Assembly (NCBI GenBank): GCA_964423845.1
Contig: CAYRGU010000045.1
Span: forward strand, 1-37,561
Source of the DNA: an uncultured Nitrospirota bacterium
GTDB lineage: Bacteria; Nitrospirota; Nitrospiria; SBBL01; SBBT01
DNA length: 37,561 nucleotides
Direction: 5' to 3'
Position numbers and translations under genes: made by a program
Notes under the pieces: generated by a model
Told to the model about the DNA's origin: nothing
Database searches by the model: none
What the model saw: only the letters and a program-made list of their open reading frames with translations
In this document: positions 6,583 through 37,561 of the stretch, one piece after another
How positions within the stretch are numbered: position 1 is the first letter of the stretch
Layout of the letters: every line of letters starts with the position of its first letter

Positions 6583-6707
6583 AAAAAATCCCCACTTGGA
6601 ATGTTCCGCTATTTATGACAACAAATAAAAATCATGTCAACACACTGCATATAGATCCATCATGTAGGCGGACTACAATAAGTGGTCTTTTCTCTATTTT
6701 TTAAGTC

Positions 6708-6735
6708 TTGATTTAAATTTTACAATTGTTATAAT
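6708..6735 (+). promoter_or_regulatory. Sigma70-type promoter upstream of scpA
   Basis: TTGATT (6708-6713), a 16-nt spacer, then extended -10 TGT-TATAAT (6727-6735). It lies in an AT-rich 177-bp divergent intergenic region, with the scpA ATG at 6760. Confidence 0.45.
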
Positions 6736-6759
6736 TCGATAAACTTTTTATGCTGATAT

Positions 6760-8161: not shown

Positions 8162-8212
8162 GTGGCGAGTCTTTAACAGGTCAATAAATCTTCAAAAATA
8201 AGGGGATTGCTG

Positions 8213-8737
8213 ATGGTTGATATTTTGTTTCCGGGAATTGCCGCGCTTCAGAATTTGCATCCTCTCTTTGTCCATTTCCCGATTGCTTTTTTCACGGGGG
8301 CCCTTCTTATGGAGGGGATTGCCATTGTTTACGATGAAAAATGTCATCTTGTCGCCACGTGGATGTTGTACCTGGCGGCCTTGACGGCTGTTGTGACTTT
8401 AATAACCGGATTGATCGCTGAATATTCTCTGGCAGCGGCCGATCCTATGGGGCACCACAGCCCTGCGCATGATCCCATCCACGTACACCGAAACTGGATG
8501 GTGACCGCCACGTTTTTTGGGCTTTCCATGGCAGGTTATTTCTTTTGGATTAACCACAAAAAGCGATGGGCTACGCATTATTGGCGCCTGTTTCTCGGAC
8601 TCATTCTTTTGGTGCTTGTGGTTTCGATGGGGGCGGATCGGGGGGCTCGTCTCGTCTATGAATTTGGTTCCGGGATCAATCCGAATCTCTTAAAAGAAGC
8701 CCCCCACGAAGAGCACCCTGAAGGGGATCATCATTAA
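8213..8737 (+). CDS. DUF2231-like integral membrane protein with a His-rich C-terminal tail
   Basis: LHPLFVHFPIAFF motif near the N-terminus and about 4 predicted TM segments. C-terminal tail is HEEHPEGDHH. The track starts at TTG 8207; ATG 8213 has GGGG 7 nt upstream. Confidence 0.6.
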   Translation: MVDILFPGIAALQNLHPLFVHFPIAFFTGALLMEGIAIVYDEKCHLVATWMLYLAALTAVVTLITGLIAEYSLAAADPMGHHSPAHDPIHVHRNWMVTATFFGLSMAGYFFWINHKKRWATHYWRLFLGLILLVLVVSMGADRGARLVYEFGSGINPNLLKEAPHEEHPEGDHH

Positions 8738-13978: not shown

Positions 13979-14007
13979 CCGGCTGTTTACGACCCCGTCC
14001 GCCGCGT

Positions 14008-14036
14008 TTGACAGTCTTTTTAGGAACGTGTTAGAT
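14008..14036 (+). promoter_or_regulatory. Possible promoter for tRNA-Lys
   Basis: TTGACA (14008-14013), a 17-nt spacer, then TTAGAT (14031-14036), about 37 nt upstream of the tRNA 5' end. Confidence 0.35.
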
Positions 14037-14072
14037 ATGGCCCCCGCAGAAATCAAATTCCATCCTCACTCC

Positions 14073-14145
14073 GGGCCGCTAGCTCAGTTGGTAGAGCACC
14101 GCCCTTTTAAGGCGGGTGTCCCGGGTTCGAATCCCGGGCGGCTCA
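14073..14145 (+). tRNA. tRNA-Lys (anticodon UUU)
   Basis: Hand-folded 73-nt cloverleaf. Acceptor GGGCCGC/GCGGCTC (one G-U). D arm GCTC-AGTTGGTA-GAGC. Anticodon arm CCGCC-CTTTTAA-GGCGG. T arm CCGGG-TTCGAAT-CCCGG. Discriminator A. CCA is not encoded. Confidence 0.92.
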
Positions 14146-14173
14146 CCCCTATCTTAAAACGACCGATTCTTGG

Positions 14174-14202
14174 TAGAAATCAAATGGGGCGAAAGGTATA
14201 AT
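14174..14202 (+). promoter_or_regulatory. Possible promoter for the FecR-like/HK/RR operon
   Basis: Perfect TATAAT at 14197-14202, with TAGAAA (14174-14179) 17 nt upstream. Confidence 0.35.
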
Positions 14203-14240
14203 CGTAATATTTGGTGTCCATGGATATTTACGGGGAGTCT

Positions 14241-15617
14241 ATGACCGAAGAGAAGAGGCGTTCGCGGAACCCGGTTCCACAGGAAATGAGGGATGTCCCC
14301 GAGCAGTTTTTTAAAAAACGGAGGAGAAGGCTTCATAATTTATGGATTGAAATTTTTCTTACCTTGGCAGGTATTGGGGTTTGTCTTGCTGTTTTCCTGT
14401 TTGGTTTAAGCCAGGTCTTCCCTCATTTTAGTCTTGTCAACAGTTGGTTTAATGACGCGGGTCCCTCGGTTGCAGGGGGGGGCGAAAATCAGAACGCTGG
14501 ATCAGTGCCTGTCCTATCGGAGGGACAGTCGGCGGTCATTGCCCATCTCACGGCGATTCAGAATGATGTCAAAAGCAAACGGGATGGCGAGGTTGTCTGG
14601 TCGCGCGCCCAGGAGGGGCTAAAGCTCTATGGCCGGGATGCGATTCGCACGCTCTCTCGCTCCAATGCAGTGGTTACTTTCGACGATCATAACTCCCTCG
14701 ATATCGGGGAGAACTCTCTTGTTTTACTGAAATATCATGGGTATGACTCCAAGCAGGGGATTCAGAAATCGCTCATGGAGCTCGTTGACGGACAGGTCAG
14801 AAGCCAGATTGACGGGGATCATGAGGCCAAAGTGGGAATGGAAATTATCACGCCATCCGCTTTGACGGAGATCCATTCCGACGGGGGGGATCACCAGAAG
14901 GCAGATGTTCAGGTTCACGTTAAACCGGACCAGTCTGCGGCAGTGATGGTGTACGCGGGAAGGGCGAAGGTGACGGCCCAGGGGGTGACCATTGATGTGG
15001 CGCGCAACCGGGTGGCCCATATTCCTGTGGGGCGGCCTCCCCAGCCGCCGCAGGGACTCCCAGGGCTGCTGACGGCCCTCTCTCCGGAAGAAGGGGGGAT
15101 CTATTTTTATAGAGAGGGGCCTCCAGAGGTGGCCTTTTCCTGGTCTCCTTCCGATGCGAAGATGTCTTATCACCTTCAGGTGTCCTCCGCGTCGGGTTTT
15201 AAGAATCGCCTTTTGGATGAAAAGGTTCCTGTCGCGGCCTTTTCATCTCGCGCGCTCAAGGAGGGGAGATACTTTTGGCGAGTCGCGGCGGTTGATGCCG
15301 AGGGGATTGAAGGGGGATGGAGTGTGGTGAGGAGCTTGGAGGTGGTCAGAAGCGGTGTTTTTGCCGTTCTCCGCCTCTACGCGCCGAAAGACGGCCAGGT
15401 GGTTTTTCAGGAGACGGTCCTTGTGGAGGGAGAAACCGATCCTCGATCGGAGGTTTACCTGAATGGCAAGGCGATCCCTGTGAGTGATGTGGGGTATTTC
15501 AGGAAGGAGATTCTGTTAAAAATCGGGGACAATGAGGTGCAAGTGGAATCGGTGAATCAGGCAGGCGCCGCGAGCTTTCAGCGCCGCATGGTGAGGCGTC
15601 AGCGTTTCAAACCCTGA
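14241..15617 (+). CDS. FecR-domain membrane-anchored protein with C-terminal Ig/FN3-like repeats
   Basis: Track ORF 14211..15617. One TM (IEIFLTLAGIGVCLAVFLFGL), then a FecR-like segment (GEVVWSRAQEGLKLYGRDAIRTLSRSNAVVTFDDHNSLDIGENSLVLL). YHLQVSSASGF...GRYFWRVAAVDAEG...W is an FN3-like pattern. ATG 14241 has GGGGAG 5 nt upstream. Confidence 0.7.
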   Translation: MTEEKRRSRNPVPQEMRDVPEQFFKKRRRRLHNLWIEIFLTLAGIGVCLAVFLFGLSQVFPHFSLVNSWFNDAGPSVAGGGENQNAGSVPVLSEGQSAVIAHLTAIQNDVKSKRDGEVVWSRAQEGLKLYGRDAIRTLSRSNAVVTFDDHNSLDIGENSLVLLKYHGYDSKQGIQKSLMELVDGQVRSQIDGDHEAKVGMEIITPSALTEIHSDGGDHQKADVQVHVKPDQSAAVMVYAGRAKVTAQGVTIDVARNRVAHIPVGRPPQPPQGLPGLLTALSPEEGGIYFYREGPPEVAFSWSPSDAKMSYHLQVSSASGFKNRLLDEKVPVAAFSSRALKEGRYFWRVAAVDAEGIEGGWSVVRSLEVVRSGVFAVLRLYAPKDGQVVFQETVLVEGETDPRSEVYLNGKAIPVSDVGYFRKEILLKIGDNEVQVESVNQAGAASFQRRMVRRQRFKP

Positions 15618-15638
15618 CAGAAATTTGTTCATTTTTAA

Positions 15639-17513
15639 GTGAAAAGAGCCTTTTTGATGCGTGATATTCCCAGACATTTTTTTTGGTTCCCAATCCGTTT
15701 AAAGCTGTTGTTTACCATGTTGTTGGTGGTGACCATCGCGGTGAGTGTCATCACGGTGACGATGGGAACCATTTTCAAGAAGGATAAAACGACTTATGTC
15801 CTGGATCTGACCTCGACGATGGCCCTTCACATTGCGGAAGAGACCGAGACGACCCTGCAGTTTTATCAGGAGCAGTTAAGGGTTTTCTCCCGTTTGCTTC
15901 TTGCGGAGGAGATTCTTGAAGCCAAGAGAGAGGAGTGGATCCGTCAGTTTTTTTCGGATTATCAGGATTTTCTGTCTGTTTCTTTGAGTGATCAGGCTGG
16001 AAAAGAACGTATTGTTGTCTACGATACCGCTAAATTCAGTGAGGTGGGGCTTGACAAGGAAGAAGTAGAAAAACACCGACGACCCGTCTCAATCGGAAAG
16101 TTAAAAATGGGAGAAATCCTGGTTAGAAATTCAAATCTCTCCCCAAAACTCCCCTCTTTTACCATGACGTTCCCAATGATCTACAAGGGGGAATCCCTTA
16201 TTCTTTCTGCGGAGATTTACTTAAGAAAGCTTCTTCGGCTTGGACATAAACCCAAGGGATTTGAAGTCTTTTGGGTGGATCGGGAGGGGAACCTGTTGAA
16301 GACGCCTCACCTTGGATCAGGCCCAAAAGTTGAGAATGTTCTGATGATCCCGATGGTGGGGGCTTTTCTGGAGGGGAAGACGTTGGCCGGGGCGATGGAG
16401 TATTCTCTTTCTGGGCACCCCTACCTGGGGGCTTACGCGCCGGTTGAATCGGGGCACCTGGGGGTGATGGTGCAGGCCCCCCAGGAGGTTGCCTATTTAA
16501 CGGCCAGGGAATTGATTGAGACGTTGGTCCTGGTCTCCCTGGGGGTGCTTGTTTTTTCCGCTGTCGTGAGCTTTATTCTGGCGAGAAGTATTACCCGTCC
16601 GATTCAGAAGCTTGCCCAGGTGATTCCCGCTGTGGCGGCGGGGAATTTTGATGTCTATCTGGAGGTAAAAAGCCGGGATGAAATCGGGTTTTTGGCTGTT
16701 TCCATGAATCAAATGGCCGATGAGCTTAAAAAGAGAGAAGATAGATTGAAATTGGCCAGTGCTGCCCTCCTGCAGTCCGAGAAGATGGCGGCCTTTGGAC
16801 AATTGGCAACAGGGGTGGCCCATGAGTTAAGGAACCCTCTGGCGGGGGTCCTGGGCTATGCCCAGTTGGCCTTGAAAAAGGTGGGCCAGGAGGGGCCCAT
16901 ACGGGCGCAATTGTCCATTATTGAGGGGGGCGTGAAGCGGTGCTTGTCAATTATTGAACGATTGATGAAATTTGCGCGTCAGGAGAAAGTTGATTTCTCT
17001 GCCATTGATTTAAATCTCCTCGTTGAGGAGACCATTACACTGGTGGCTCACCTCATGGTGAGCAACGGCGTCGTGATCGAGAAGGCCCTTTCTTCTCCCT
17101 TGCCAAAAATGAATGGGAATGCCAATGAGATCATGCAAGTGGTGATGAACCTAATGATGAACGCGCAGCAGGCCATGCCAGAGGGGGGTGTCATCAAAGT
17201 GGCCACGCTGTTTAAGGAGGATCATATCGAGTTTCTTGTCACGGATAGCGGGACCGGTATTCCAAAGGATCTTCACCAGAAGATTTTTGAGCCTTTTTTT
17301 ACAACGAAACAGGCTGGGAAGGGGACAGGGATGGGGCTCTCGGTCTCTTATGGGATCGTACAGGAACATCAGGGGAAAATTCACGTCGAAAGTGAGGTGG
17401 GTCAAGGGACCACTTTTACTGTAACTTTCCCCATTTTAGGGGTTGGTATTCCTGAAATCAGCCAGGCTTTTGCCGGCGATACAGAGGCTTTGGAGCATAA
17501 AACAAACGCTTGA
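15639..17513 (+). CDS. Sensor histidine kinase (extracytoplasmic sensor domain, HAMP, HisKA, HATPase_c)
   Basis: Two TM segments flank a sensor domain of about 270 aa. HAMP is ITRPIQKLAQVI....GNFDV.LEVKSRDEIGFLAVSMNQMADEL. H-box is GVAHELRNPL. N-box is NLMMNAQQA. G-boxes are DSGTGIP and GKGTGMGLSVS. ATG 15657 is an alternative start. Confidence 0.9.
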   Translation: MKRAFLMRDIPRHFFWFPIRLKLLFTMLLVVTIAVSVITVTMGTIFKKDKTTYVLDLTSTMALHIAEETETTLQFYQEQLRVFSRLLLAEEILEAKREEWIRQFFSDYQDFLSVSLSDQAGKERIVVYDTAKFSEVGLDKEEVEKHRRPVSIGKLKMGEILVRNSNLSPKLPSFTMTFPMIYKGESLILSAEIYLRKLLRLGHKPKGFEVFWVDREGNLLKTPHLGSGPKVENVLMIPMVGAFLEGKTLAGAMEYSLSGHPYLGAYAPVESGHLGVMVQAPQEVAYLTARELIETLVLVSLGVLVFSAVVSFILARSITRPIQKLAQVIPAVAAGNFDVYLEVKSRDEIGFLAVSMNQMADELKKREDRLKLASAALLQSEKMAAFGQLATGVAHELRNPLAGVLGYAQLALKKVGQEGPIRAQLSIIEGGVKRCLSIIERLMKFARQEKVDFSAIDLNLLVEETITLVAHLMVSNGVVIEKALSSPLPKMNGNANEIMQVVMNLMMNAQQAMPEGGVIKVATLFKEDHIEFLVTDSGTGIPKDLHQKIFEPFFTTKQAGKGTGMGLSVSYGIVQEHQGKIHVESEVGQGTTFTVTFPILGVGIPEISQAFAGDTEALEHKTNA

Positions 17514-17558
17514 TGGCAAGGAGGGATTGATCGGTGCGCTGGGAGAAGGAGTGATGCG

Positions 17559-18989
17559 ATGAACAATGCAGTGAAGCCGTCGATTTTAGTGGTGGATGAT
17601 GAGCCATCATTTCGTTCCGTTATTGTGGATTTTCTTTTGGAGGAAGGGTATCTGGCCATTGGCGCGGAATCTGCGGAGAAAGGGCTCTCTTTAATGGGTC
17701 AGGGCCAGTACGGTATCGTTTTCAGCGATATTCATCTTCCCGGCATGAACGGGCTGTCTTTTTTAAAAGAAATTAAGAAACGATCTCCGGATGTGGAAGT
17801 CGTTATGATGAGTGGACACGGAACGTTTAATTTCGCACTCGATGCCCTCCGCTGTGGGGCGTATGATTATGTCGTCAAACCCTTGAGCGAAATTGAACTG
17901 GTTCTGATGATTGTCAGACGTGTCTCCGACAAAATTGGCTTGGAAGCCGAGAAAAAAAGGCTCGTGGAAGAGCTTCAGGAGAGCAATCGGAGGTTAGAGG
18001 AAAGTCATATTAAAATTGTTCAATATTCAGAAGATATTTCGGCGCTTTATGTGGCGGAGAAGGAATTACTCTCCGGATTGGATCTGGTTGAAGTGTTCCG
18101 GCGGACGACCAACTGTCTCTCCCGTCTGGTTGGATTTTACCCGGCCATTATTTGGACTTACTCTGAATCTTTAGATACCTTGATTCCCCAGGCCCGGAGT
18201 GGGTTGGATCAGATGAAAGATCAGGAGTGGGTCATTCCTCTGACGGGGCAGATCTCCCGTCCGACACAGAATATGGTCGCCCATTTGGAGGAGACCTTCG
18301 CGTCGATTGTCTCTGCGGGATCTGTTTTCTTCCAGCCGATTCTTGGACGGGATAAACCGTTTGGCTTTTTATCTATTGTTGGAGACAAAAAAGGGATTTT
18401 TTCTCTGAGAGAGCGTGAAATTCTCTCTCGCTTTTCGACGTCTGTGGCGATGGCCATCGAGAACGCGAACCTATACCAGGAGGTGAAGGCCCTCTCCATT
18501 CGGGATGGCTTAACGGGTCTTTATAACCGCCGTCACTTTGAAGAGGTCCTGGGAACGGAGGGGTTTCGATCGGTTCGTTATCAGCATCCGGTTGCGCTGA
18601 TCTTTCTGGATGTGGACCACTTTAAAACGTACAACGACACCTATGGACATCTTTGCGGCGACGAGGTCTTAAAACAAATTGCCACCCTTATCGTGAAGCG
18701 GATTCGCGTCGCGGACATTGCCTGCCGGTACGGGGGAGAGGAGTTCACGATTGTGCTCCCAGACACGGATACGAAGAATGCGCGATCGGTGGCTGAAGAC
18801 ATCCGGATTATGGTGGCCTCCTATCCCTTCCCCCACGTGGGGCAATGCCCTGGTGGATCGCTGACGATCAGCGCCGGCATTTCGGAATGCCCCACTGACG
18901 GGAAGAGTCTTTCGGATATTGTGGCCGTTGCGGACAAGGCCCTTTATCGGGCGAAGCTTGCAGGTCGGAATAAGGTCTGCTGCGCCTGA
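17559..18989 (+). CDS. Response regulator with REC, a central GAF-like region and a GGDEF diguanylate cyclase domain
   Basis: REC: ILVVDDEPSFR ... FSDIHLPGMNG ... VKP. GGDEF domain has an intact GGEEF active site and an RVAD I-site (RxxD) five residues upstream. A strong RBS (GGAGAAGGAG) precedes the ATG. Confidence 0.9.
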   Translation: MNNAVKPSILVVDDEPSFRSVIVDFLLEEGYLAIGAESAEKGLSLMGQGQYGIVFSDIHLPGMNGLSFLKEIKKRSPDVEVVMMSGHGTFNFALDALRCGAYDYVVKPLSEIELVLMIVRRVSDKIGLEAEKKRLVEELQESNRRLEESHIKIVQYSEDISALYVAEKELLSGLDLVEVFRRTTNCLSRLVGFYPAIIWTYSESLDTLIPQARSGLDQMKDQEWVIPLTGQISRPTQNMVAHLEETFASIVSAGSVFFQPILGRDKPFGFLSIVGDKKGIFSLREREILSRFSTSVAMAIENANLYQEVKALSIRDGLTGLYNRRHFEEVLGTEGFRSVRYQHPVALIFLDVDHFKTYNDTYGHLCGDEVLKQIATLIVKRIRVADIACRYGGEEFTIVLPDTDTKNARSVAEDIRIMVASYPFPHVGQCPGGSLTISAGISECPTDGKSLSDIVAVADKALYRAKLAGRNKVCCA

Positions 18990-18993
18990 CCGG

Positions 18994-20382
18994 CTAATCC
19001 GCTTTTGGTTTTAACAGGACAAAGAAGGCCCTGTTTTCGCGGCTCACTCGAAGCAGGAGCCCCTCGGTTTTATTGGCTTTTTCAATGAGTTTTTTGAAGT
19101 CTTCGCCGTTGTTCACTTTCTCCCTGTTGACCTCTTTAATTAAATCACCCTCTTTAAGCCCTTCCGATTCTGCGGGACTTCCGCTTTCAACGTGGGTGAT
19201 GAGAATCCCTTTCTCCTCTTTCACTTTATACCGTTCGGCCATTTCCGGGGTGATGTCCTGAATGTTCAACCCCCAAAAAAACTCCGGTCTTTTTGGAAGC
19301 GAGACCGGCGTTGCCTCATCGCGTTTTTCCACCAGTTCGATGGTCAGCGTCTTTTCCTTTCCCTCTCTTAAGACTTCGATACGGGGGGTCTCTCCCGGGG
19401 AAAATCCTGCAATGATTCTGGCCAGGGTATTGGGGGTATCCACACTTCGTCCATTGACCTTGAGAATAATATCTCCAGGCATCATGCCCGCTTTGTCGGC
19501 GGGATCCCCTTCAAACACTTCATTGACCAAAACGCCTGTATTTTCCTTAACGCCGAATTTCTCCGCGAGGTCGGGCGTTAGCGTCTGAATCCCTACGCCG
19601 AGCCAGCCTCGAATGACCTTCCCTTTGGCCATGAGTTGGGTCGTGACGGTTTGCGCCATGTTGGAGGGGATGGCAAACCCGATTCCTTGCGCAAAATTAA
19701 TGATGGCAGTGTTGATGCCGACAACCTCTCCATGGATGTTAAACAGGGGCCCCCCCGAATTCCCCGGGTTAATGGAGGCGTCTGTCTGGATAAAATCTTC
19801 ATAGCGGGAGAGGTTGACATTTTCACGTCCGAGGCCGCTGATGACACCCAGGGTCACGGTTCGATCCAGGCCAAAGGGATTCCCGACGGCAATGACCCAC
19901 TGCCCCACTTTGATTTTGCTGGAATCTCCCAGGGTGGCATAGGGGAGGTCATTCGGGGCCTCAATTTTTACCAGCGCAAGATCGGTGTCGACATCTTTCC
20001 CCACGACCTTTCCCCTGAACTTTGTCTTGTCAGAAAGGCGGACCTCCACTTCATCGGCGTTTCCAACGACATGGTTGTTGGTGAGAATGAAGCCTTTTTT
20101 ATCGATGATGACGCCCGATCCGGAGCCGGGGGGTGTTTCCGGGGCCTTTCCACGAGGCGATTCACGTGGACTCTCATTGGGGCGAGAGGTGGGGTGAGGC
20201 TTCCCGGTGGCCGGGAAGATATTCACAACGGTTGGCTGAACCTCTTCGGCCAAGGCAACGAGCGTATTCTGTAGTGTTTCAAGGAGTTGTACTCCTTTCT
20301 GCCCCTCTTTGGCATCGGCGAGGGAGGTCAGATGGGTGATAAAAAATAAAAAAACGGAAAGACAAATTATTTTTCTGTTCAT
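18994..20382 (-). CDS. htrA: Periplasmic serine endoprotease, HtrA/DegP/DegQ family (trypsin-like domain plus 2 PDZ)
   Basis: Signal peptide, then the catalytic triad context TNNHVV (His), DLALVKI (Asp) and GNSGGPLF (Ser). Two PDZ-like segments follow. Confidence 0.9.
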   Translation of the reverse strand: MNRKIICLSVFLFFITHLTSLADAKEGQKGVQLLETLQNTLVALAEEVQPTVVNIFPATGKPHPTSRPNESPRESPRGKAPETPPGSGSGVIIDKKGFILTNNHVVGNADEVEVRLSDKTKFRGKVVGKDVDTDLALVKIEAPNDLPYATLGDSSKIKVGQWVIAVGNPFGLDRTVTLGVISGLGRENVNLSRYEDFIQTDASINPGNSGGPLFNIHGEVVGINTAIINFAQGIGFAIPSNMAQTVTTQLMAKGKVIRGWLGVGIQTLTPDLAEKFGVKENTGVLVNEVFEGDPADKAGMMPGDIILKVNGRSVDTPNTLARIIAGFSPGETPRIEVLREGKEKTLTIELVEKRDEATPVSLPKRPEFFWGLNIQDITPEMAERYKVKEEKGILITHVESGSPAESEGLKEGDLIKEVNREKVNNGEDFKKLIEKANKTEGLLLRVSRENRAFFVLLKPKAD

Positions 20383-20437
20383 GAATTTCTCCTGCCCTGA
20401 AGGTTAACGCACTGACGGCTGACCGGTGGAAAAGGGG

Positions 20438-20510
20438 TGCCGAGACGCAGAATCGAACTGCGGACACAAGGCTTTTCAGGCCTCTGCTCTACCGACTGAG
20501 CTATCTCGGC
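20438..20510 (-). tRNA. tRNA-Phe (anticodon GAA)
   Basis: Hand-folded 73-nt cloverleaf on the minus strand. Acceptor GCCGAGA/TCTCGGC. D arm GCTC-AGTCGGTA-GAGC. Anticodon arm GAGGC-CTGAAAA-GCCTT. T arm CGCAG-TTCGATT-CTGCG. Discriminator A. Confidence 0.92.
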
Positions 20511-20520
20511 GTACGGGCAT

Positions 20521-20549
20521 AATTAACAAAGGTATCGGGAAATTGTCAA
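20521..20549 (-). promoter_or_regulatory. Possible promoter for tRNA-Phe (and possibly htrA)
   Basis: Minus strand: TTGACA (20549-20544), a 17-nt spacer, then TTAATT (20526-20521), about 10 nt upstream of the tRNA 5' end. The -10 element is weak. Confidence 0.35.
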
Positions 20550-20555
20550 CACGCT

Positions 20556-21641
20556 TTATGCTGATTCGAGGCGCCACCAGAGGTAGATGCCGAGCAGTAA
20601 GAAAAAGAGGTTGCCCCCCCATGCCGCAGGAAGGGATGAAAGCACGCGCGTATATCCCAGTGCGATCATGGCCGAAGAGATGACCCAATAGGAAATGCCA
20701 ATGACAATCCCTACCGCAAAGCAACTTGTGCTACCTGCTTGTCTGGCCTGTTTTACAGAGAATGGAATTCCAATGAAGGCCATGATGAAACTGGCCACTG
20801 AAAAGGCCCCTCTGGCCTGGAGATCCACCTCATAGCGCGTGGCGTTTATGCCATCTTCAGTGAGTCGCTGAATATAGGTTTGAAGTTGTCGATCGGTCAT
20901 TTCCGTGGGAATCACGGCGGCCTGTCGAAAATCCTCTGGGGTCCTGTTGAGTGGAATGTTTTTTTGTATAAATGGCGTTGTTTCCAACGATCTGTTCGCG
21001 AGAAAACGGGTTTGAATGCCTGAAGCGAGCGTCCAGGTCTGGTTCGCATAGGTCATCGATTTGGCCGTGATCTCCTCCTTCAGGGAGAAGTCCTCGTCAA
21101 CGGTATAGAGATGAATCCCCTGCATCGTCCCGGAAGAAGGATCAATTTCACGGGCATAAAAAAATTCTTTGGGGGCGAATTGAAGCCATACCTTACTCTG
21201 TATAAAGTGGGTGGAGGGATCTCTTCTCTCTATTTCTATCTCTTGAACGGCCCGGGCTGTTTTTAATCCATAGGGGATGAGCGTGCCGTTTAAATGGAAA
21301 CCAAGCAGGCTGATCAAGAGGGAAAAGAGAAGGATGGGCCTCGTCAGGGTGAACAGGCCAATGCCGGCCCCCATGAAGGCGAGGAGTTCGTTATTTTTCG
21401 AGAGCCGAACCAGGGTAAAAAGCGTTGACAAAAGAATGGCGAGTGGCATGACCTCGAGGAGGATTTTTGGAGACTTGAGCACAAAATATTGCAGAATCCA
21501 GATCAATGCCGCGTCATGCTCGGAAAATCGGCGTATTTTTTCAAGGAAATGAAGCACCAGAAAAACGGTGGCCAAGGCCGGCAGCACCACGGCAAAGAGC
21601 CGTAAATATTCTTTAAGCAGATAGCGGGTGATGAGACGCAT
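20556..21641 (-). CDS. lptG: LPS export ABC transporter permease LptG (YjgP/YjgQ family)
   Basis: N-terminal RYLLKEYL, six-TM topology with a large periplasmic loop. It is the second of two tandem YjgP/YjgQ paralogues. Confidence 0.82.
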   Translation of the reverse strand: MRLITRYLLKEYLRLFAVVLPALATVFLVLHFLEKIRRFSEHDAALIWILQYFVLKSPKILLEVMPLAILLSTLFTLVRLSKNNELLAFMGAGIGLFTLTRPILLFSLLISLLGFHLNGTLIPYGLKTARAVQEIEIERRDPSTHFIQSKVWLQFAPKEFFYAREIDPSSGTMQGIHLYTVDEDFSLKEEITAKSMTYANQTWTLASGIQTRFLANRSLETTPFIQKNIPLNRTPEDFRQAAVIPTEMTDRQLQTYIQRLTEDGINATRYEVDLQARGAFSVASFIMAFIGIPFSVKQARQAGSTSCFAVGIVIGISYWVISSAMIALGYTRVLSSLPAAWGGNLFFLLLGIYLWWRLESA

Positions 21642-21644
21642 CGG

Positions 21645-22763
21645 CTACGATTGCCGTGCGGTGATGAGACCGAGATAAATCGTGGCCGGAATTAAAATAA
21701 AATGGGGGAGTCCTGCGGTCACAAAAGGGGGCGCGATGCGAAGGGTCAAGAGGGAGTCCCCCAGGATATTCAAAAGATAAAAAAGCAGAATGATCCCCAA
21801 GGCCGACGCAAAACCGCTTAAGCGACCCAACCTTCCAAACAGAATCCCGAGTAGCGTGCCTGTTATTCCGAAGACAAAAGCGGCGAGAGCAAAAGAATAG
21901 TTTTTATAAAATCCAGCTAAAAGACGCAGATCAGAAAGGCGACTCTTGTCGGGGGAGATGACTTTTTCCTGAATCTCGGAATAGGAGAGGCCCGATGGTT
22001 CCAGGGGAGGCGACTCCGAGTCAGTCGCTACGTCAATCTTGAAGTCATACGTGGAGAAGAAGAGGTGTTGGCGTTCGATTTCATTGCGGCTTTTACGATA
22101 AAGCTCACCGTCCTGAAGATGGAGTTCGACCGTTCCTGTGTCCGGCAGGGAGAGAAGGGTCCCACGCCTGGCCGTGATCAGAACGGGCTGCTCTTTCTTG
22201 CGTTCGTCGTGAATGAAAATGCCACGGAGTTCTGTGAAGGTGGGCATCGCTTCCACATAGATCACGATGTCGGAGAATGTCCCGTTGAACTGACCCGCGT
22301 GAATTCCAATGCCAGCTTGCTTTTTTAAAAGGTTCATGGAAAGTGACTTCAAGGAAGCGCCGCCCCAGGTGGGGGCCACGCTTCCCATGACGACGGCCAT
22401 GAAGCCAACCAACACCGAAAAGACCAGCACTGGCATCAGGATTCTACGGAGACTGATCCCAGCGGCATACATGGAGAGGATTTCATTGTCTGATGCGAGC
22501 CGGTGAAAGGTGATCGCGGATGAAAAACAGATCGCAAGGGGAATGGTGAGGATAAGAAAAGAGGGAAGAAGGTGTAGAAAAATATTGATGACGCTTGCCG
22601 GATGAACCCCCTTGTCAAGCACCCACTCCATCATCTGCAGCATCTGCTGAATCAAAACGAGCGAGGTGAGGATAAAAACGGCAAAGAGGAAGGGGATGGC
22701 CAGTTCCTTAAGAATATAGCGATCCAGCGTCTTCACCATGGAGGCGCCACTATAGTGAATCAT
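21645..22763 (-). CDS. lptF: LPS export ABC transporter permease LptF (YjgP/YjgQ family)
   Basis: LDRYILKEL near the N-terminus and YjgP/YjgQ topology. It is the first of the tandem pair. The true start may be the internal ATG at 22739 (MVKTLDRYILKEL...). Confidence 0.82.
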   Translation of the reverse strand: MIHYSGASMVKTLDRYILKELAIPFLFAVFILTSLVLIQQMLQMMEWVLDKGVHPASVINIFLHLLPSFLILTIPLAICFSSAITFHRLASDNEILSMYAAGISLRRILMPVLVFSVLVGFMAVVMGSVAPTWGGASLKSLSMNLLKKQAGIGIHAGQFNGTFSDIVIYVEAMPTFTELRGIFIHDERKKEQPVLITARRGTLLSLPDTGTVELHLQDGELYRKSRNEIERQHLFFSTYDFKIDVATDSESPPLEPSGLSYSEIQEKVISPDKSRLSDLRLLAGFYKNYSFALAAFVFGITGTLLGILFGRLGRLSGFASALGIILLFYLLNILGDSLLTLRIAPPFVTAGLPHFILIPATIYLGLITARQS

Positions 22764-22770
22764 CCCGTGA

Positions 22771-22815
22771 CTTGTAAATAACAGGCTTGTAAATAACAGG
22801 CTTGTAAATGACAGT
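22771..22815. repeat. 3 x 15-bp tandem direct repeat (CTTGTAAATAACAGG x2 plus CTTGTAAATGACAGT)
   Basis: Read directly. It fills most of the 69-bp spacer between the MFS stop (22833) and the lptF start (22763). Confidence 0.95.
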
Positions 22816-22832
22816 CTGTTGAATCCGTCTGG

Positions 22833-24209
22833 TTATTCTTCGGAGCTCTTTTTTCCGATAAAGGGGGTGCCCTCGCTCATCAGGGTGTAAAGATCTCTCG
22901 CAATGAACGGTTTCACGTCACGGGTTTCTTTGAGGCTTGGGAGAAACCGGAGGGCGATCGCGAGCCGTAATGCTGCGGAGAGAACAAAGAGCATCTGGAG
23001 ATTGGAGAAGTGTAGGAGAGAACTTCCAAACAGCGCCAGGGTCTCTGGCAGAAAGATGAGGAGGAGTCCCCCCAGGGATGAGCCGAAGAAAATGCCGATG
23101 GCGTTTGCGGAGTTGTAAATGGCCACACACTGGGCCCGTTTGGGGGGCGAAACGGCATCGAAGACGAAGTTTCCCATCGAGAGGGTGAAGCCCGCCCAAA
23201 TCACCCCGGCAAAAAGCTGAATCCCCACGGCCCAGATCAGATTGGTTGCAAAGACCCAGAGCAGGGGGATGATGGCCAGCGTCAGGCCAGTCAGCGTCAG
23301 CGTCCGTTTGTTGCCAAAGTGATCTCCGAGCTTTCCCCAGAGATGAAGCGTGAGAAATTGTGAGAGGACAATCGCGGCGGTCGCGATCATGAACTGAAGA
23401 TAGCTGAAATGAAGGTTACGCAGCAGATAAGGGGTGATAAACGGACCGGAGACGGTAACCGCGAAATGGGTGAGCGCGGTGTAGGTCACAAACCGGCCAA
23501 AATTTGTCTTCCGTCCATCCCGAATGAATTGTCCGATGGAGAAGTGATCCGCGTCGTGGCGAAGATAGGGGGGATCGATCATCCGGGAGAGATAAGAGGC
23601 GGAGATCAGCCGACTGATTAACGCGGCGACGAAGAGGACGACAAATCCTGCCGCGACTTTCCCGCTCTGTTGCGCCTGATGGAGAACGAATCCCGCGAGG
23701 GCCAGGGCCCCCAGGTGGGTGATACTGATCCAGCGGTTGCGTCGCCCGAAGTAGTCCCCGCGCTTGTTGGCGTCCACCAGGTCTCCCATGAGACTGCTCC
23801 AGGGAGGGTTCGCGAAGCTGCCGAACATAAAATAGAGGGTGACCATTCCGGTGAGGCAAAGCACCTGCTGTTTTGAGGAGAGATCTGGGATGAAGGAAAG
23901 GGTGGCGATGATTGGCCATACGGCGGTTTGGCCGATCACTCCGATCAGGATAAGAGGTTTTCTTCGGTGAAGGAAGTGCAACAGGGAGACGGAGGCAAAC
24001 TGAAACAGGGCCCCTACGAGCTGGGGGAGCGAAGAGAGGAGGGCAATTTGGGGGTCGGTGGCCGCGAGAAAGACCGCAAAGGCGATCAGGTAGCTCTCCC
24101 CGGACCCTGTCATCACGGCATAAAAAATACCATCCCAGATGGAATAGTTCAGGCTTTTTTGAACCCGGTCAGGATCGATCTCTCCGGGAGAGGGTGCGGT
24201 TTCACTCAT
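22833..24209 (-). CDS. MFS transporter
   Basis: 458 aa with about 12 hydrophobic segments and a central cytoplasmic loop. It is a typical MFS_1-like layout; the substrate is not inferable. Confidence 0.75.
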   Translation of the reverse strand: MSETAPSPGEIDPDRVQKSLNYSIWDGIFYAVMTGSGESYLIAFAVFLAATDPQIALLSSLPQLVGALFQFASVSLLHFLHRRKPLILIGVIGQTAVWPIIATLSFIPDLSSKQQVLCLTGMVTLYFMFGSFANPPWSSLMGDLVDANKRGDYFGRRNRWISITHLGALALAGFVLHQAQQSGKVAAGFVVLFVAALISRLISASYLSRMIDPPYLRHDADHFSIGQFIRDGRKTNFGRFVTYTALTHFAVTVSGPFITPYLLRNLHFSYLQFMIATAAIVLSQFLTLHLWGKLGDHFGNKRTLTLTGLTLAIIPLLWVFATNLIWAVGIQLFAGVIWAGFTLSMGNFVFDAVSPPKRAQCVAIYNSANAIGIFFGSSLGGLLLIFLPETLALFGSSLLHFSNLQMLFVLSAALRLAIALRFLPSLKETRDVKPFIARDLYTLMSEGTPFIGKKSSEE

Positions 24210-24235: not shown

Positions 24236-24307
24236 TTGCGAACCCTGCGAACCCTGCGAACCCTGCGAGACCTGTGAGGTCTGCGAGGTCTGCGAGGTCT
24301 GCGAGGG
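24236..24307. repeat. 8 x 9-bp tandem repeat (TTGCGAACC, CTGCGAACC x2, CTGCGAGAC, CTGTGAGGT, CTGCGAGGT x2, CTGCGAGGG)
   Basis: Read directly. It begins 27 bp upstream of the MFS start codon (24209, minus strand), inside the 365-bp divergent MFS/cstA intergenic region. Confidence 0.95.
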
Positions 24308-26364: not shown

Positions 26365-27273
26365 GTGGGAATGATGGACAAGAAAGAAGAGGGGTATTCC
26401 GTATTCGTTCTCCCCTTGGGGTTGGCCAAGCCGTACTGCTTTACCATCAAAAAAAAGGCGGTTCTGGGGGTATTGGGGATTCTCTCGGTCGCTTCTTTCG
26501 TTTTTTTGGGTTTGATTGTTCAATATGTTCTGGCTTTGGGGCAACTCGGCGAGTTGCGTGGCCTGCTTCAGGTTACGAAGGATCAGCGGGTAGAGATTCA
26601 GAGCATTATGCTGAAGGTCGATGGCTTCAAGAAACAGATGTTGCAGTTGAAAGAGATGGATCAGAAATTAAGGATTATTGCCGGGTTGTCTCCCCAAAGT
26701 GGGGGATCGGGCCTCGGTGGGCCGGAGGCGTGGCAGAGTTCTCAAGTATCGCAATCCGGTATCATGAATTCGGTACATTTCAACGTGGAGGACCTGCAAC
26801 GACAGGCTTTACGACAGGAAGAAAGTTTTCAGGAATTGGCGGCGGCGATTGTTCAGCGCCAGTCTGTTTTAGCTTCAACCCCATCTATTTTACCTACAGA
26901 TGGTTTAGTTCTCTCTCCTTTTGGAAAACGGATCTCTCCATTTACAGGTCGGCTTGCGATGCATGGCGGCATTGATATCGGTGCCCCGTATGGGGCTGCC
27001 GTTATCGCGTCGGCTGCTGCGACGGTTATTTATGCCGGGTTTGACGGTAGCTTCGGAAAGGTTGTGAAGTTGGCCCATAGCCGTGGAATTCAGACGATTT
27101 ATGCGCATCTGTCGAACGCGGCGGTGAGGGTGGGGCAAAAAGTGAAACGGGGGGAAACGATCGGCTTTGTGGGCACCACAGGTCTTTCCACCGGTCCACA
27201 TCTCCACTACGAAGTTTATGTCAACAGTGTGCCAGTTGATCCGATGGGGTATGTTTTTCATGAAAGATCATAG
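26365..27273 (+). CDS. M23 family metallopeptidase (murein DD-endopeptidase-like) with an N-terminal TM and coiled-coil
   Basis: HGGIDIGAPYGAAV (HxxxD) and GTTGLSTGPHLHYEV (HxH) motifs. ATG 26371 or 26374 are alternative starts. Confidence 0.85.
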   Translation: MGMMDKKEEGYSVFVLPLGLAKPYCFTIKKKAVLGVLGILSVASFVFLGLIVQYVLALGQLGELRGLLQVTKDQRVEIQSIMLKVDGFKKQMLQLKEMDQKLRIIAGLSPQSGGSGLGGPEAWQSSQVSQSGIMNSVHFNVEDLQRQALRQEESFQELAAAIVQRQSVLASTPSILPTDGLVLSPFGKRISPFTGRLAMHGGIDIGAPYGAAVIASAAATVIYAGFDGSFGKVVKLAHSRGIQTIYAHLSNAAVRVGQKVKRGETIGFVGTTGLSTGPHLHYEVYVNSVPVDPMGYVFHERS

Positions 27274-27711: not shown

Positions 27712-30348
27712 ATGTTCAGGGCATTTTTAAGAAGAATCATTGGAAGTCGAAATGACCGGGAACTTAAGCGGCTTTGGCCGATCGTTGAGGCCGTTCATGG
27801 CCATGAGGCCTCGATTTCTGCCTTGTCCGATCAGGGATTGCGCGAGAAGACGGCGTCCTATCGCAAACTTCTCGCCGGGTCTCCCTCTGATTTAGAGCGA
27901 TCCAGCCAGCTTTTTATGATTCTTCCGGAGGCGTATGCCGTCGTCCGGGAGGCCTCGCGGAGGGTGCTTTCCATGCGGCATTTTGACGCGCAGATTTTGG
28001 GTGGAATCGCCTTGCATGAAGGAAAGATTACGGAGATGAAGACGGGTGAGGGAAAAACCCTTGTGGCCACGCTGCCGGTCTACCTGAATGCTTTGACCGG
28101 GCGGGGGGTTCACGTCGTGACGGTGAACGATTATCTGGCAAAACGGGACTCAAAATGGATGGGGGAGATTTATCGATTTCTGGGCCTTTCCGTGGGTCTG
28201 GTTCAACATGATGCCCCAGATTTGGAGCGGCAAGCCGCCTATGGTTCGGATGTGACGTATGGGACGAATAATGAATTCGGGTTTGATTACCTGCGCGATA
28301 ACATGAAGTTTGATTCGAAAAAATTTGTTCAGCGGGAACTCAACTATGCCATCCTCGACGAGGTGGACAGCATCCTGATTGATGAGGCGAGAACCCCCCT
28401 TATTATTTCAGGGTCTTCAGAAGAATCAACCGATCTTTATCATCGTGTGAACCAGATCATCCCGCTTTTGAAAAATGAGGAAGACTTTACCGTTGAAGAG
28501 AAGACTCGGACCGTCACGCTCAGCGAAAGTGGTAATACGAAGGTTGAACGGTTACTTGGCCTGGACAACCTTTATGATCTGGCAAACATGACCTTGGTGC
28601 ACCATGTATTACAGGCCCTGAAGGCGCACACCCTTTTCAAGTGCGACGTGGATTATGTGGTGAAAGACGGAGAAGTGATTATTGTGGATGAATTTACGGG
28701 GCGACTGATGCCAGGGCGCCGCTGGAGTGATGGCCTTCATCAAGCGGTCGAGGCAAAAGAAGGGGTGAAGACGGCCAATGAGAACCAGACGTTGGCCTCG
28801 ATTACCTTTCAGAACTATTTCAGGCTCTATCAGAAACTTTCGGGGATGACCGGTACCGCCGATACCGAGGCGGCCGAATTTTCAAAAATATATAACCTGG
28901 AGGTGATGGTCATTCCTCCAAATCGTCCGATGGTTCGAGAGGATTTCGCCGACTTGATCTATCGAACCGAAAAGGAGAAATTCAATGCCATTGTGGATGA
29001 GATTGTCGAGTTGAACAAAACAGGACATCCCGTTTTGGTTGGAACCATCTCCATTGAAAAATCGGAGCGGCTCTCTGCGATGCTCAAGCGTCAGGGCGTT
29101 CCCCATTCGGTTTTAAATGCCAAGTATCATGAAAAAGAGGCGGAGATTATTGCCCAGGCAGGACGCCGTGGGGCGGTGACTATTGCCACCAATATGGCCG
29201 GCCGTGGGACAGATATTCTCCTGGGGGGAAATCCTGATTTTTTAATCAAGCAATATGAGGCACAGCATCCTGATGCGGAGTCGTCTGTGCTGCTTGCGGC
29301 CCGGGAAAGTATTTCTGCGGCGAGTGAAGCAGATCGCCTGGGGGTGATTGCCCTGGGTGGACTTCATATCATTGGGACCGAGCGGCATGAATCCCGGCGG
29401 GTGGATAATCAGCTCCGAGGGCGCGCCGGTCGACAGGGAGATCCGGGCTCTTCCCGGTTTTATCTGTCGCTTGCGGATGATCTTTTACGTATTTTTGGAT
29501 CGGATAAAATCTCAAATCTCATGGCCAAATTAGGCATGGAAGAAGGCGTTCCCATTGAACATGGCATGGTCACGCGCGCGATTGAAAATGCGCAGAAACG
29601 AGTAGAAGGACATCACTTCGATATCCGTAAGCAGCTTTTGGAATATGACGATGTCATGAATCAGCAGCGAACGGTGATTTATCACCGCAGGCGGGAGATT
29701 CTTCCAAGGGAGTCTGTTTCTGACGATCTCCGGGAGATGATTCTTGAACAGGTTGAGGAGATGCTCCCGACCTATTGTCCGGAAAAGGCCTATCCAGAGG
29801 CCTGGGAGGTGGATGGCCTGATTGAGGCGATCACCCACCGGTTTAACCTCACCCTTTCCAAGGAGGTGTTGGGGTTCCCCTCCGTCGGCATTGAGTCGCT
29901 CAAGGAGACGATTCAGCGGGAGGTGGGGCAGGCTTATGAGAGGAAGCGGTCAGAAATAGGGGAAGCGGCGGCCTGCTTTCTGGAAAAGCAGATTTTTTTA
30001 CGAATGATTGACACCCATTGGAAGGATCATCTCCTGGCGATGGATCACCTGAAGGAGGGGATTGGCTTACGGGGTTACGGCCAGAAAGAGCCTCTTTCTG
30101 AATATAAGCGGGAAGGTTTTCAGATGTTCTCGGCCATGATCGAGCGGATTAAGCAGGATACCCTTGAGCAGCTCTTTCGGGTTCAGGTGACCTCCGATCC
30201 GATGCTTCCCGCCCCCAAGGTCCAGCCGGTCCATTTGAATCGTGGAGAGTCAGTCCCTCCGGCGCGCCGGGAGACAAAAAAGGTGGGGAGAAACGACCCT
30301 TGTCCTTGCGGAAGCGGCAAGAAATATAAAAAATGCTGTGGGGCGTGA
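27712..30348 (+). CDS. secA: Preprotein translocase ATPase SecA
   Basis: [14 protein letters not shown] Walker [24 protein letters not shown]-like box and [10 protein letters not shown]. The C-terminal zinc-binding tail is [14 protein letters not shown]. Confidence 0.97.
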
Positions 30349-30443
30349 CAGGGGGTGGTTGGGCGCACTGACGGAATGCCCCGCCAATCCCAGCCGGGTC
30401 GACAGAGAATCCACATTCGTACCAGGACAAGGCGACACACGCA

Positions 30444-34018
<3,575 letters not shown>

Positions 34019-34022
<4 letters not shown>

Positions 34023-35578
34023 CCACGGAACTCCACGTTTTCGTCAGCTCCGTGCAAAAGGAATTGGAAGACGAGCGACTCATTGTCCAGAATCTAATGA
34101 ACACCGACCCGTTCCTTTCCACGCATTGCGTTCCGGTGCTCTACGAATTCGAGCCGGCCTCACCTGATAAGGCCTCGGAGGGATGTATTAAGGCGCTCGA
34201 CCGTTGCCAGGTCTATTTGCTTATGGTTGGCGTCCAATACGGCGCCCTGGTGCGTAAACTCTCGATCACGCACATGGAATATCGCCGGGCCAAGCAAAGG
34301 AAACTGCCCATTCTTGCCTTCGTTAAGGGTGGCCGCGGCGTGAAACGTGAGGAAGGAACCGGCGCATTCCTCAAGGAACTCGATGACGACGGCCTCAAAT
34401 ACAAGCGTTTTGGTAATGTCATCGAGCTGCAAAAGGAGGTCCGTGCCGCGCTGGTGAATCTCCTCGCAGACCGGTTCGGCATCGTCCCCACCAGCGACGA
34501 GAATGTAATCGCTGAGCAGACGATTGAGGCGACGTCTCCTTTCGAATCGCAGCGGATGGATCGGGTCCGGTGGAAAAACCTCGACCAGGGAGTAGCGAGA
34601 CAATTGATCGCGACGGCATCGGATCTGCCGCCCCAAGAGTTAGCGAGTACGGATGTTCTCGAAGGTGCTGCAGCACGCGGGCTGGTCTGGTTCAACGCGG
34701 ACTCTGGCGAACACTTCGCTACTGCGGCCGGTATCGTGCTTTTAGCGAAAGACCCTTCGGCTGTCTTTCCCCAGTGCCGTATCCTCGCTGACGCCTACCG
34801 TAGTACCGAGCCCGATGGTGACCCACGTGACCAAGAGGATATCCGGGGACCAATGCCCCTGGCGATTGACCGCGCCATTGCCTTCGTCGACCGAAACACC
34901 CGCCATCCCATGAAAGTGGTCGGCCTCAACCGCGTCCGGCTCGACGAGTACCCTGTTGAAGCCCTGCGAGAAGCGCTGGTCAACGCTGTGTCTCACCGTC
35001 GATACGAAGATGCCGGGCGCAAGATCATGCTGGAAGTCTTTTCCGATCGTGTGATCATCGCCAGCCCCGGTCTGCCGCCCGCGCCGATTACCCTCGCCAG
35101 CCTCCGCAAAGGGAAATATCGGCCCTGCTCGCGCAACCCTGTTCTGGCCCAGGGCCTTTCTTACTTTCACCGCATCGAAGAGCGCGGCAGCGGCTTCCGC
35201 CGGATGCACGATCAGATGCTCGACCACGGTCTGGATCAGCCGCTGATCGGCACCGATACGGGTTACTTCCAGATCACCTTCCCGGGGCCGGGCGACGCCA
35301 TCGAGCGGATCCGCGTACCCGAGAAACAGCTTGTAGTGACTCCGGCGGTTGAGGCGCGACTCAGCGACCGGCAGAGACGGATTCTCGGGGAGGCGCTAAG
35401 GACAGGCTTCGTTACCCGGCGTTGGTGCGTGGCCGAGTTCGGGGTGGCTAACGATACGGCCGGGCGTGACCTCAAGTCGTTGGTAGACATAGGATTGCTG
35501 TTGTCAGAGGGCCGGGGGCGGGCCGTGCGTTACCTGCTGCCGCCCCCCGAATCGACCGGGAAACGACCGACTCGCTGA
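34019..35578 (+). CDS. DUF4062-like N-terminal domain fused to a COG2865-like (HATPase_c_4) module and C-terminal winged HTH; putative sensor/regulator of the module
   Basis: ATG overlaps the helicase stop (ATGA, 34019-34022). The N-terminus ([14 protein letters not shown] ... [11 protein letters not shown] ... [10 protein letters not shown] ... LPILAFV) matches the DUF4062 pattern as I recall it. [20 protein letters not shown] ... VIIASPG.LP ... [23 protein letters not shown] matches the 'RecG-like' HATPase_c_4 module of COG2865 proteins. [45 protein letters not shown] is wHTH-like. No AlbA_2/Schlafen N-domain is present. Confidence 0.8.
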
Positions 35579-35639
35579 GGAAATCGCCCGATGGAGAATC
35601 GACCGATAATCGACCGACGGCCCCCCGGAATCGACCGAC
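35549..35639 (+). repeat. Cluster of six AATCGACCGA-like direct repeats spanning the 3' end of the wHTH gene and the spacer before the methyltransferase gene
   Basis: Perfect copies at 35597-35606, 35608-35617 and 35629-35638. 9/10 copies at 35550-35559 and 35582-35591. A one-base-deleted copy at 35562-35571. Longer shared context CCCCCCG(G)AATCGACCG at 35543-35558 and 35621-35637. Confidence 0.9.
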
Positions 35640-35652
35640 GAAGGAAGGACTG

Positions 35653-37561
35653 ATGACCAGGACGCATAAGAAACTCATCGAAGTCGCCCTGCCGCTCGAC
35701 GCCATCAACACGGCCTCGGCGCGGGAAAAATCCATCCGGCACGGCCACCCGAGCACGCTGCACCTGTGGTGGGCGCGGCGGCCGCTGGCGGCGGCGCGGG
35801 CGGTGATCTTCGCGCAGATGGTGGACGACCCGTCGGCGCACCCGGACCTGTTCAAGACCGAGCAGGCGCAAGAGAAGGAGCGGCTGCGGCTGTTCAAGAT
35901 CATCGAGGACCTGGTGCTGTGGGAGAACACCACGAACGAGACGGTCTTGCAGGCGGCGCGCGACGAGATCTGGGCAAGCTGGCGGCGCGCCTGCGCCGAG
36001 AACGCCGACCATCCGCGGGCGAAGGATCTGTTCGACCGCAACAAGCTCCCCGCCTTCCACGATCCCTTCGCCGGCGGCGGCGCGCTGCCGCTGGAGGCGC
36101 AGAGGCTGGGGCTGGAGAGCTACGCCAGCGACCTGAACCCGGTAGCGGTGCTCATCAACAAGGCGATGATCGAGATCCCGCCGAAGTTCGCGGGCAAACC
36201 GCCGGTCAATCCGAAAGCAAGGGGAAACATGGGCCACTCGGGGAGCTGGCACGGAGCACAGGGATTGGCCGAGGACGTGCGCTACTACGGCCAGTGGATG
36301 CGCGACGAGGCCGAGAAGCGCATCGGCCACCTCTACCCGAAGGTCGAGGTCACCGCCGAGATGGTGAAGGCGCGGCCGGACCTGAAGCAGTACGCGGGCC
36401 GGAAGCTCACCGTGATCGCCTGGCTCTGGGCACGCACGGTGAAGAGCCCGAACCCGGCCTTTGCCCAGGTGGACGTGCCGCTCGCCTCGACCTTCATGCT
36501 CTCCACCAAGCCGGGGAAGGAAGCGTACGTCGAGCCGGTGATCCTGGGAGCGCCGGCGTCCCCGCCGGCAGGGAAAGAACAAGCCGCCGGGACGGCGGCG
36601 GTCCCAGGCTACCGCTTCACGGTGAAGATGGGGAAGCCGAAGGATGCGGAGGGGGCGAAGAACGGCACCAAGCTGTCGCGCGGGGCGAACTTCCGTTGTG
36701 TGATGTCGGGCACACCGATCGCTACCAACTACATCAGGGCTGAAGCACAAGCCGGACGCATGGCTGTGCGGTTGATGGCTGTCGTAGCAGAGGGCGAGCG
36801 TGGGCGCGTGTACGTGACGCCGCAGTCGGAAATGGAATCTGTCGCCCGATCAGCCTCGCCAGCATGGAAGCCCGATCTCAAGGTGCCCACGCCGTGTCAC
36901 GACGTTGACCGACTTCCGATGTACGGCATGCCGACGTGGGGTGACGCTTTCACCCCCCGCCAGCTCGTGGCGCTGACGACCTTCTCCGACCTGGTGCAGG
37001 AAGCGCGCGAGCGGGTGCAGCGCGACGCCCTCGCCGCCGCCCTCCCCGACGACCCCAAGCCCCTGCGCGACGGCGGCACCGGCGCCACCGCCTACGCCGA
37101 GGCGGTGGGGGTGTACTTGGCTTTTGCGTTGAGCAAGCAGGCGGACCTCGGCAACAGCCTTTGCCGATGGGAGCCGATCGCCCAGTGCCCTCGACAGCTT
37201 TTCGGTCGCCAGGCGATCCCGATGATCTGGGACTACGCCGAGGGCAACCCGCTCGGCGACAGTTCGGGCGCATGGGTAGTTTTCGTGGACGGCATCGTCA
37301 AGGCGTTCACGAAGGCGTTCGAAACCGTGAAGGCGACCGCTGTGGGTCACGCTGAACAAGCCGATGCAGGAATGCAGAGCGTCGCTCTCGGGAAAGTCGT
37401 CTCCACCGACCCGCCGTATTACGACAACATCGGCTACGCCGACCTGTCGGACTTCTTCTACGTCTGGCTACGCCGCTCGTTGCGACCCGTCTTTCCCGAC
37501 CTCTTCGCCACACTTGCGGTGCCCAAGGCGGAAGAGCTGGTCGCCACGCCCTACCGCCACG
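35653..37561 (+). CDS. DUF1156-type (COG1743-like) DNA amino-methyltransferase; the 3' end is truncated by the window edge (636 codons visible)
   Basis: Absent from the ORF track because there is no in-window stop. I translated it by hand from ATG 35653 (RBS AAGGAAGGA at 35641-35649): [51 protein letters not shown]... The HLWWARRP signature is at 35761-35784. SAM motif I DPFAGGG is at 36061-36081. Catalytic motif IV DPPY is at 37408-37419. The frame stays open to 37561. Confidence 0.9.

Follow-up and report, generated by a model that had tools for sequence, protein, structure and literature searches.

The question raised by this locus is why the nucleotide composition changes abruptly directly behind secA, and whether the DNA that follows was acquired by the host or was joined to it during assembly. 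The window investigated in this study, that is, the whole stretch of DNA of 37,561 nt, is one entire contig (C45) of a metagenome-assembled genome (MAG) with 177 contigs and 1.77 Mb, and the bin has a GC content of 53.7%, a completeness of 97% and a contamination of 1.9%. An initial annotation had noticed the break and had proposed either a horizontally acquired island with its mobility functions or its other boundary past 37561 or, if the contig were metagenomic, a chimeric join; that the contig is metagenomic holds true, as the window is a whole MAG contig.

The host-side 30 kb of the window are made up of housekeeping genes, among which Pfam recognized the rml genes, ScpAB, LptD/F/G, HtrA, CstA, the M23 peptidase and SecA (Table 1). 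It had been stated that secA ends at 30348 with its normal tail and that the next gene starts from GTG 30444, and both statements were confirmed: the SEC-C tail runs to the stop codon at 30346-30348, the GC and GC3 of secA are 0.519 and 0.579, and an ORF start is present at the GTG. The tRNA-Lys and tRNA-Phe genes are located at 14073-14147 and 20436-20510, 10-16 kb away from the junction, and are, as annotated, not the insertion site. A 20-nt coding word of the SEC-C motif at 30306-30325 recurs identically in another contig of the bin (C141:4640-4659), which suggests that a second SEC-C-tailed protein may be encoded there. The bin harbors 108 period-18 tandem arrays, mostly of a hairpin repeat with a consensus of about GGGGTCGCACCCCTCGCA, at approximately one array per 16 kb; two were detected in the host part of the window (13259-13295 and 24237-24306) and none in the GC-rich tail. 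This 18-nt repeat was tried as a test of linkage between tail and host and was set aside, since only about 0.45 arrays are expected in the tail and their absence is therefore uninformative.

Table 1. Features on both sides of the compositional break, in coordinates of the window
Feature	Coordinates	Strand	Evidence and remarks
M23 peptidase gene	26365..27273	+	Pfam Peptidase_M23; conserved partner upstream of secA; host DNA
secA, complete	27712..30348	+	All SecA Pfam domains and SEC-C; host-like composition to the stop codon
Spacer holding the compositional junction	30349..30443	.	Change-point 30417, interval 30354-30469
hmaA, first gene of the cassette	30444..34022	+	PADLOC HmaA (PDLC00659), 1690 bits, residues 1-1190
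Embedded gene between hmaA and hmaB	34019..35578	+	Pfam DUF4062 and HATPase_c_4
Spacer before hmaB	35579..35652	.	Short GAATCGACCG-type direct repeats
hmaB, first 636 codons, cut by the contig end	35653..37561	+	PADLOC HmaB (PDLC00660), 1015 bits, profile 6-624 of 967

Profiling of GC, GC3 and tetranucleotides, which had been proposed as a check, upheld the break. The GC content rises from 0.521 over positions 1-30348 to 0.651 over 30349-37561, and the other 7-kb stretches of the bin reach a maximum of 0.591. Nothing in the bin departs further in composition than this 7.2-kb tail, which has a tetranucleotide distance of 12.6 SD from the bin mean and a TUD correlation of 0.48 versus a mean of 0.93; the four chunks of host DNA on this contig display a typical bin tetranucleotide profile. 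The reported jump in GC3 was likewise observed, from 0.58 in secA to 0.84-0.86 in hmaA and hmaB, where the individual values are 0.49-0.69 in the 21 host-side genes, 0.844 in hmaA, 0.692 in the embedded gene and 0.862 in hmaB. The embedded gene is thus of intermediate composition, with a GC of 0.60. A Markov-model change-point analysis placed the transition in the spacer or at the hmaA start (3-nat interval, Table 1). No other insertion above about 60% GC was found in the bin as a precedent. The cassette is therefore compositionally foreign and would come from a GC-rich source.

The tail encodes a copy of the anti-phage system Hma that carries one embedded gene and breaks off where the contig ends. 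Its hma genes were recognized with two of the three PADLOC models considered, PDLC00659 (HmaA) and PDLC00660 (HmaB), the third being PDLC00662 (HmaC), and hmaA, one embedded gene and hmaB lie on the same strand (+) in the order of the Hma system. HmaA is a SNF2/DEAH helicase of 1192 aa with a C-terminal PD-(D/E)xK (NOV_C/DUF3883) nuclease; Pfam assigned SNF2-rel_dom, Helicase_C and NOV_C, and the motifs GAGKT131, DEAH231, QRFGR616 and D1098...E1116-V-K are all present. The start of the embedded gene overlaps the hmaA stop, and the two genes are translationally coupled. HmaB carries the Pfam domain DUF1156 (DNA methyltransferase) and displays the motifs FAGGG139 and DPPY586. Between the embedded gene and hmaB, two 47-nt direct repeats of GAATCGACCG-type units (repeat family D2, 35549-35642) straddle the embedded-gene stop and fill the pre-hmaB spacer, within which TRF reported a period of 11 at 35597-35617.

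We searched the bin for the remainder of hmaB and for further Hma DNA, and none was found. The gene hmaC is expected past the contig end, following hmaB as it does in L136, a locus with the full set of genes: HmaA, an embedded gene of this kind, an HmaB of 962 aa and an HmaC of 1119 aa that carries HEPN_Swt1 and DUF499 and matches PDLC00662 with 1167 bits. Since the complete cassettes of L136 and of L040, described below, are free of mobility genes at both of their ends, the DNA beyond 37561 would most likely comprise just the remainder of hmaB together with hmaC, about 4.5-5 kb without an integrase.

The cassette also looks mosaic. Among the loci compared (L035-L037, L042, L055, L096), those with the closest HmaA (88%) harbor an HmaB just 54-73% identical, and the closest HmaB segments (85-90%, partial matches) come from loci whose HmaA is 71-79% identical. 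Together with the lower GC3 of the embedded gene (0.69), these identities suggest that recombination may have taken place within the cassette.

The left edge of the cassette coincides with the hmaA start, as it does in other genomes. DNA similarity to 160 Hma loci (L035-L194), in which a variable slot of 0 to about 8.4 kb separates hmaA and hmaB, starts at 30439-30450 and never extends further upstream into the spacer, and the score of the spacer is neutral between the host and cassette Markov models. No word of at least 21 nt from 30200-30600 recurs elsewhere in the bin, where the 20-nt SEC-C word in C141 is the only repeat, no junction word is shared between the window and the 160 loci, and no meaningful direct or inverted repeat was detected at the junction. 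A search of the spacer for a terminator, a promoter, a significant fold or an Rfam family returned none of these, by which the spacer was ruled out as a functional element. Nor does the spacer contain any remnant of the Omp85-like gene, the neighbor of secA in relatives. Integrase and transposase families gave no match against all the ORFs of the window, in agreement with the initial annotation, which had recognized no integrase, transposase or repeat at the visible boundary. On the visible side, therefore, the classical signs of an integrase/tRNA island, namely a mobility gene, a tRNA target and a boundary repeat, were all looked for and not found.

What follows secA in related genomes was compared, as had also been proposed. 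The pair of M23 peptidase and secA is conserved in nine of the ten relatives inspected, and the next genes are a GGDEF gene and/or a convergent Omp85-like gene, followed by Methyltransf_28; Hma follows secA in none of the ten, none of which is of the same genus. In this bin, the Methyltransf_28 ortholog was found at C40:1421-2566. Contig C40 starts inside a host-like protein, repeat-rich and OmpA-tailed, which is cut by the contig start and is not island DNA. All that the bin retains of the Omp85-like gene is an N-terminal scrap of 40 aa with which contig C37 begins (C37:1-117), beside glyQ. Because Methyltransf_28 sits behind the OmpA-tailed protein and the Omp85-like gene is reduced to a scrap, the region after secA is rearranged in this genus. 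Placing the right boundary by synteny was tried and failed: with a host-like start of C40 and an Omp85-like gene nearly absent from the bin, synteny cannot locate it. We also considered secA as a recurrent neighbor of Hma. One case was noticed, in a Pseudomonadota MAG (L074), in which a secA (6054-8711, minus strand) with a 52% identical product lies 1.3 kb upstream of hmaA (10001, plus strand) in divergent orientation; about 0.8 cases were expected by chance, and we regard it as a coincidence.

The relatives of the cassette are spread over different phyla. Proteins of Verrucomicrobiota, Betaproteobacteria, Chloroflexota, Acidobacteriota, Krumholzibacteriota and Cyanobacteriota share 82-88% identity with HmaA, and these values across phyla are higher than the identity of the host SecA within its own family (76%, with 76-78% to its nearest relatives). 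When 71 HmaA sequences were placed in a tree, the window fell into a 98%-supported clade of 12 rows, labelled with four named phyla and "6 more groups", and the phylum labels require 41 changes on the tree versus 47.8 for shuffled labels. Of the 67 plasmids on which relatives of HmaA were detected (best identity 79%), 28 are mobilizable or conjugative; on phages, none were found. Among the 36 other genomes of the order, an HmaA-like gene was found in one, as a distant copy (561 bits) located elsewhere in the genome. In L055, L100, L123, L129, L134, L135 and L136, the slot between hmaA and hmaB is taken by relatives of the embedded DUF4062 gene with 48-75% identity. The best DNA identity of the cassette to other loci is only about 82%, and therefore no donor is at hand.

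Cassettes with equally bare edges were observed elsewhere. L040 (CP089922.1, a cyanobacterial MAG chromosome deposited as complete) harbors a 10-kb block of 64-70% GC in a genome of 44% GC. It starts with the ATG of hmaA, immediately upstream of which the DNA, the RBS included, is host-like and AT-rich, and it ends about 45 nt beyond the last stop. This block lies between proS and an APH-family gene, and its flanks were found to contain no integrase, transposase, tRNA or flanking repeats. Within it (13600-19977), hmaB appears to be split into two overlapping ORFs and hmaC into three, which reflects either decay or sequencing/frame errors in the record. In L136, no mobility gene was detected among the four flanking ORFs scanned. 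Of ten loci with a significant GC contrast, seven have their left change-point at most 150 nt from the hmaA start, and the left edge in the window lies at -109 by the same estimator. A target-site duplication was considered and rejected: direct words bracketing the cassette reached p <= 0.05 in 3 of 50 loci, versus 2.5 expected. Isolated bracketing words were noticed in L056 (17 nt, flanks of 10881-23233), L136 (11 nt, at 9893 and 22448) and L069 (10 nt, at 9968 and 21254).

Taking these data together, we consider it most likely that the Hma cassette was genuinely acquired by horizontal transfer and that the break is its left edge directly after secA. Continuity with host DNA is seen on the left side only, the contig stopping in hmaB, and it speaks against acquisition that the tail is the only stretch of such composition in the bin, from which the rest of the cassette is missing. 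These same observations would fit a chimeric contig, in which a host contig ending with secA was joined to an Hma contig from a GC-rich member of the community, the host itself lacking the cassette. Such a join is conceivable in a MAG as fragmented as this one, in which the window is a whole contig that breaks within hmaB and no stretch outside the tail exceeds about 60% GC. Besides, no second assembly of the species was found: exact-protein look-ups of SecA and HmaA gave no match, the protein clusters of SecA, HmaA and the embedded gene are each singletons from this contig, and the M23 peptidase sequence had no entry in the protein-cluster collection. However, the junction falls in the 95-nt gap between two complete genes, at the very edge of the cassette seen in independent genomes, where by our estimate roughly 1% of random joins would land. 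A mis-join in the assembly graph requires a word that is shared, and at the junction no word of at least 21 nt is found again in the bin or in the 160 Hma loci; the contig is free of Ns, and Hma cassettes of equally sharp GC contrast are present in L040 and on long contigs. We therefore regard a chimera as unlikely.

The acquisition of the cassette must also be set against two further readings, namely an old resident and a classical integrase-borne element. If the GC-rich genes after secA were an old, vertically inherited feature of the clade, they should be shared by relatives. We found no support for this; the relatives carry GGDEF or Omp85-like genes and never Hma after secA, by which this explanation is refuted for the genomes searched (the secA context in 10, and HmaA in 36 of the order), the only HmaA-like gene of the order being distant and elsewhere. 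The composition is moreover unameliorated, with a GC3 of 0.84-0.86 versus 0.49-0.69 in the host, and the nearest HmaA relatives are in other phyla, so that a vertically inherited resident retains practically no probability. A classical integrase-borne genomic island or integrative element, with its integrase, att repeat or tRNA target past 37561, could be hidden by the contig end, since the right side of the cassette lies beyond it, and 3.1% of Hma-embedded genes are mobility-associated (bioRxiv 10.1101/2024.01.29.577857). Against it, the complete cassettes of L040 and L136 end within tens of nt of the last hma gene and are free of mobility genes on both flanks, the number of loci with flanking direct words above chance is close to the expected one (3 of 50 versus 2.5), and the junction is without a tRNA; we hold such an element to be highly improbable. 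Of the island put forward by the initial annotation, the acquisition is thus favored, by a known and widely transferred cassette, by its absence after secA in the relatives searched and by a junction that leaves both genes intact at the edge typical of this cassette, and mobility functions past 37561 are improbable, given L040 and L136.

As for how the acquired cassette came to lie behind secA, it would have arrived bare from a GC-rich source, without mobility genes of its own, since the complete copies in other genomes are likewise free of integrase, transposase, tRNA and consistent flanking repeats. Delivery was probably on a plasmid or by transformation with free DNA. Recombination may then have placed it in the intergenic DNA downstream of secA, where it could be transcribed by read-through from secA, because the spacer showed neither a terminator nor a promoter. 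Judging from the literature and the intact motifs, methylation by HmaB would mark the host DNA and the HmaA helicase-nickase would attack invading DNA; the embedded gene may, as the literature suggests, add a second layer of defence.

It is also conceivable that Hma cassettes spread between phyla as bare, ORF-bounded blocks by an undescribed and possibly cassette-encoded integration, for instance by the HmaA helicase-nickase, rather than by illegitimate recombination after uptake of plasmids or DNA, and we consider this very unlikely. If it were true, Hma blocks would land beside housekeeping genes, secA here and proS in L040, without an integrase, a transposase, a tRNA target or a target-site duplication. 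The compositional break is an ordinary signature of recent transfer, and nothing fundamental is changed by it, since the Hma system, the patchiness of its distribution and the embedding of genes in it have already been published. What this study presents is one more defence cassette lying bare beside an essential gene with sharp compositional edges, a pattern that recurs in other genomes. For annotation, the 7.2-kb tail should be labelled a truncated Hma locus that includes an embedded gene, with a flag that the DNA is foreign and that reads are needed to support its linkage to the host.

With reference to known systems, the cassette shares with classical tRNA-linked islands an atypical composition and a sporadic occurrence among relatives. 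It differs from them in that the window shows no tRNA target, visible integrase or boundary repeats, and the comparator cassettes are without them at both ends. Hma, which comprises a helicase, a methylase and an ATPase, has been reported to occur patchily in 26 phyla, a distribution described as "indicative of horizontal transfer" (Payne et al. 2021, PMC8565338). The window copy resembles the published system in strand, gene order and patchy distribution, with an end-to-end model match for HmaA and a match for HmaB over profile positions 6-624 of 967; it differs in ending within hmaB, before HmaC, and in lying in a small genome of 53.7% GC, where its GC content is conspicuous by 13 points. 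The nickase domain of HmaA confers protection against T4, and the hma region of Halomonas meridiana is an insertion hotspot (Liu et al. 2024, PMC11232893), while genes are embedded between hma genes in 62.7% of Hma systems (Payne et al. 2024, bioRxiv 10.1101/2024.01.29.577857). The co-oriented extra gene between hmaA and hmaB in the window agrees with these embedded genes (10.1101/2024.01.29.577857; PMC11232893), and its type, DUF4062 with HATPase_c_4, goes unmentioned in the main text of the preprint (10.1101/2024.01.29.577857).

Our data goes slightly past the publications consulted in that Hma cassettes recur with ORF-exact compositional edges beside housekeeping genes and without a mobility apparatus. 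The closest parallel to the window in this respect, L040, differs in having no embedded gene, both edges visible, and an hmaB and hmaC apparently split into several frames. Like the cassette in the window, it is devoid of integrase, transposase, tRNA and flanking repeats, its GC block (66% versus 44%) begins at the hmaA start codon, its neighbor is a housekeeping gene, proS in place of secA, and its HmaA is 82% identical to that of the window.
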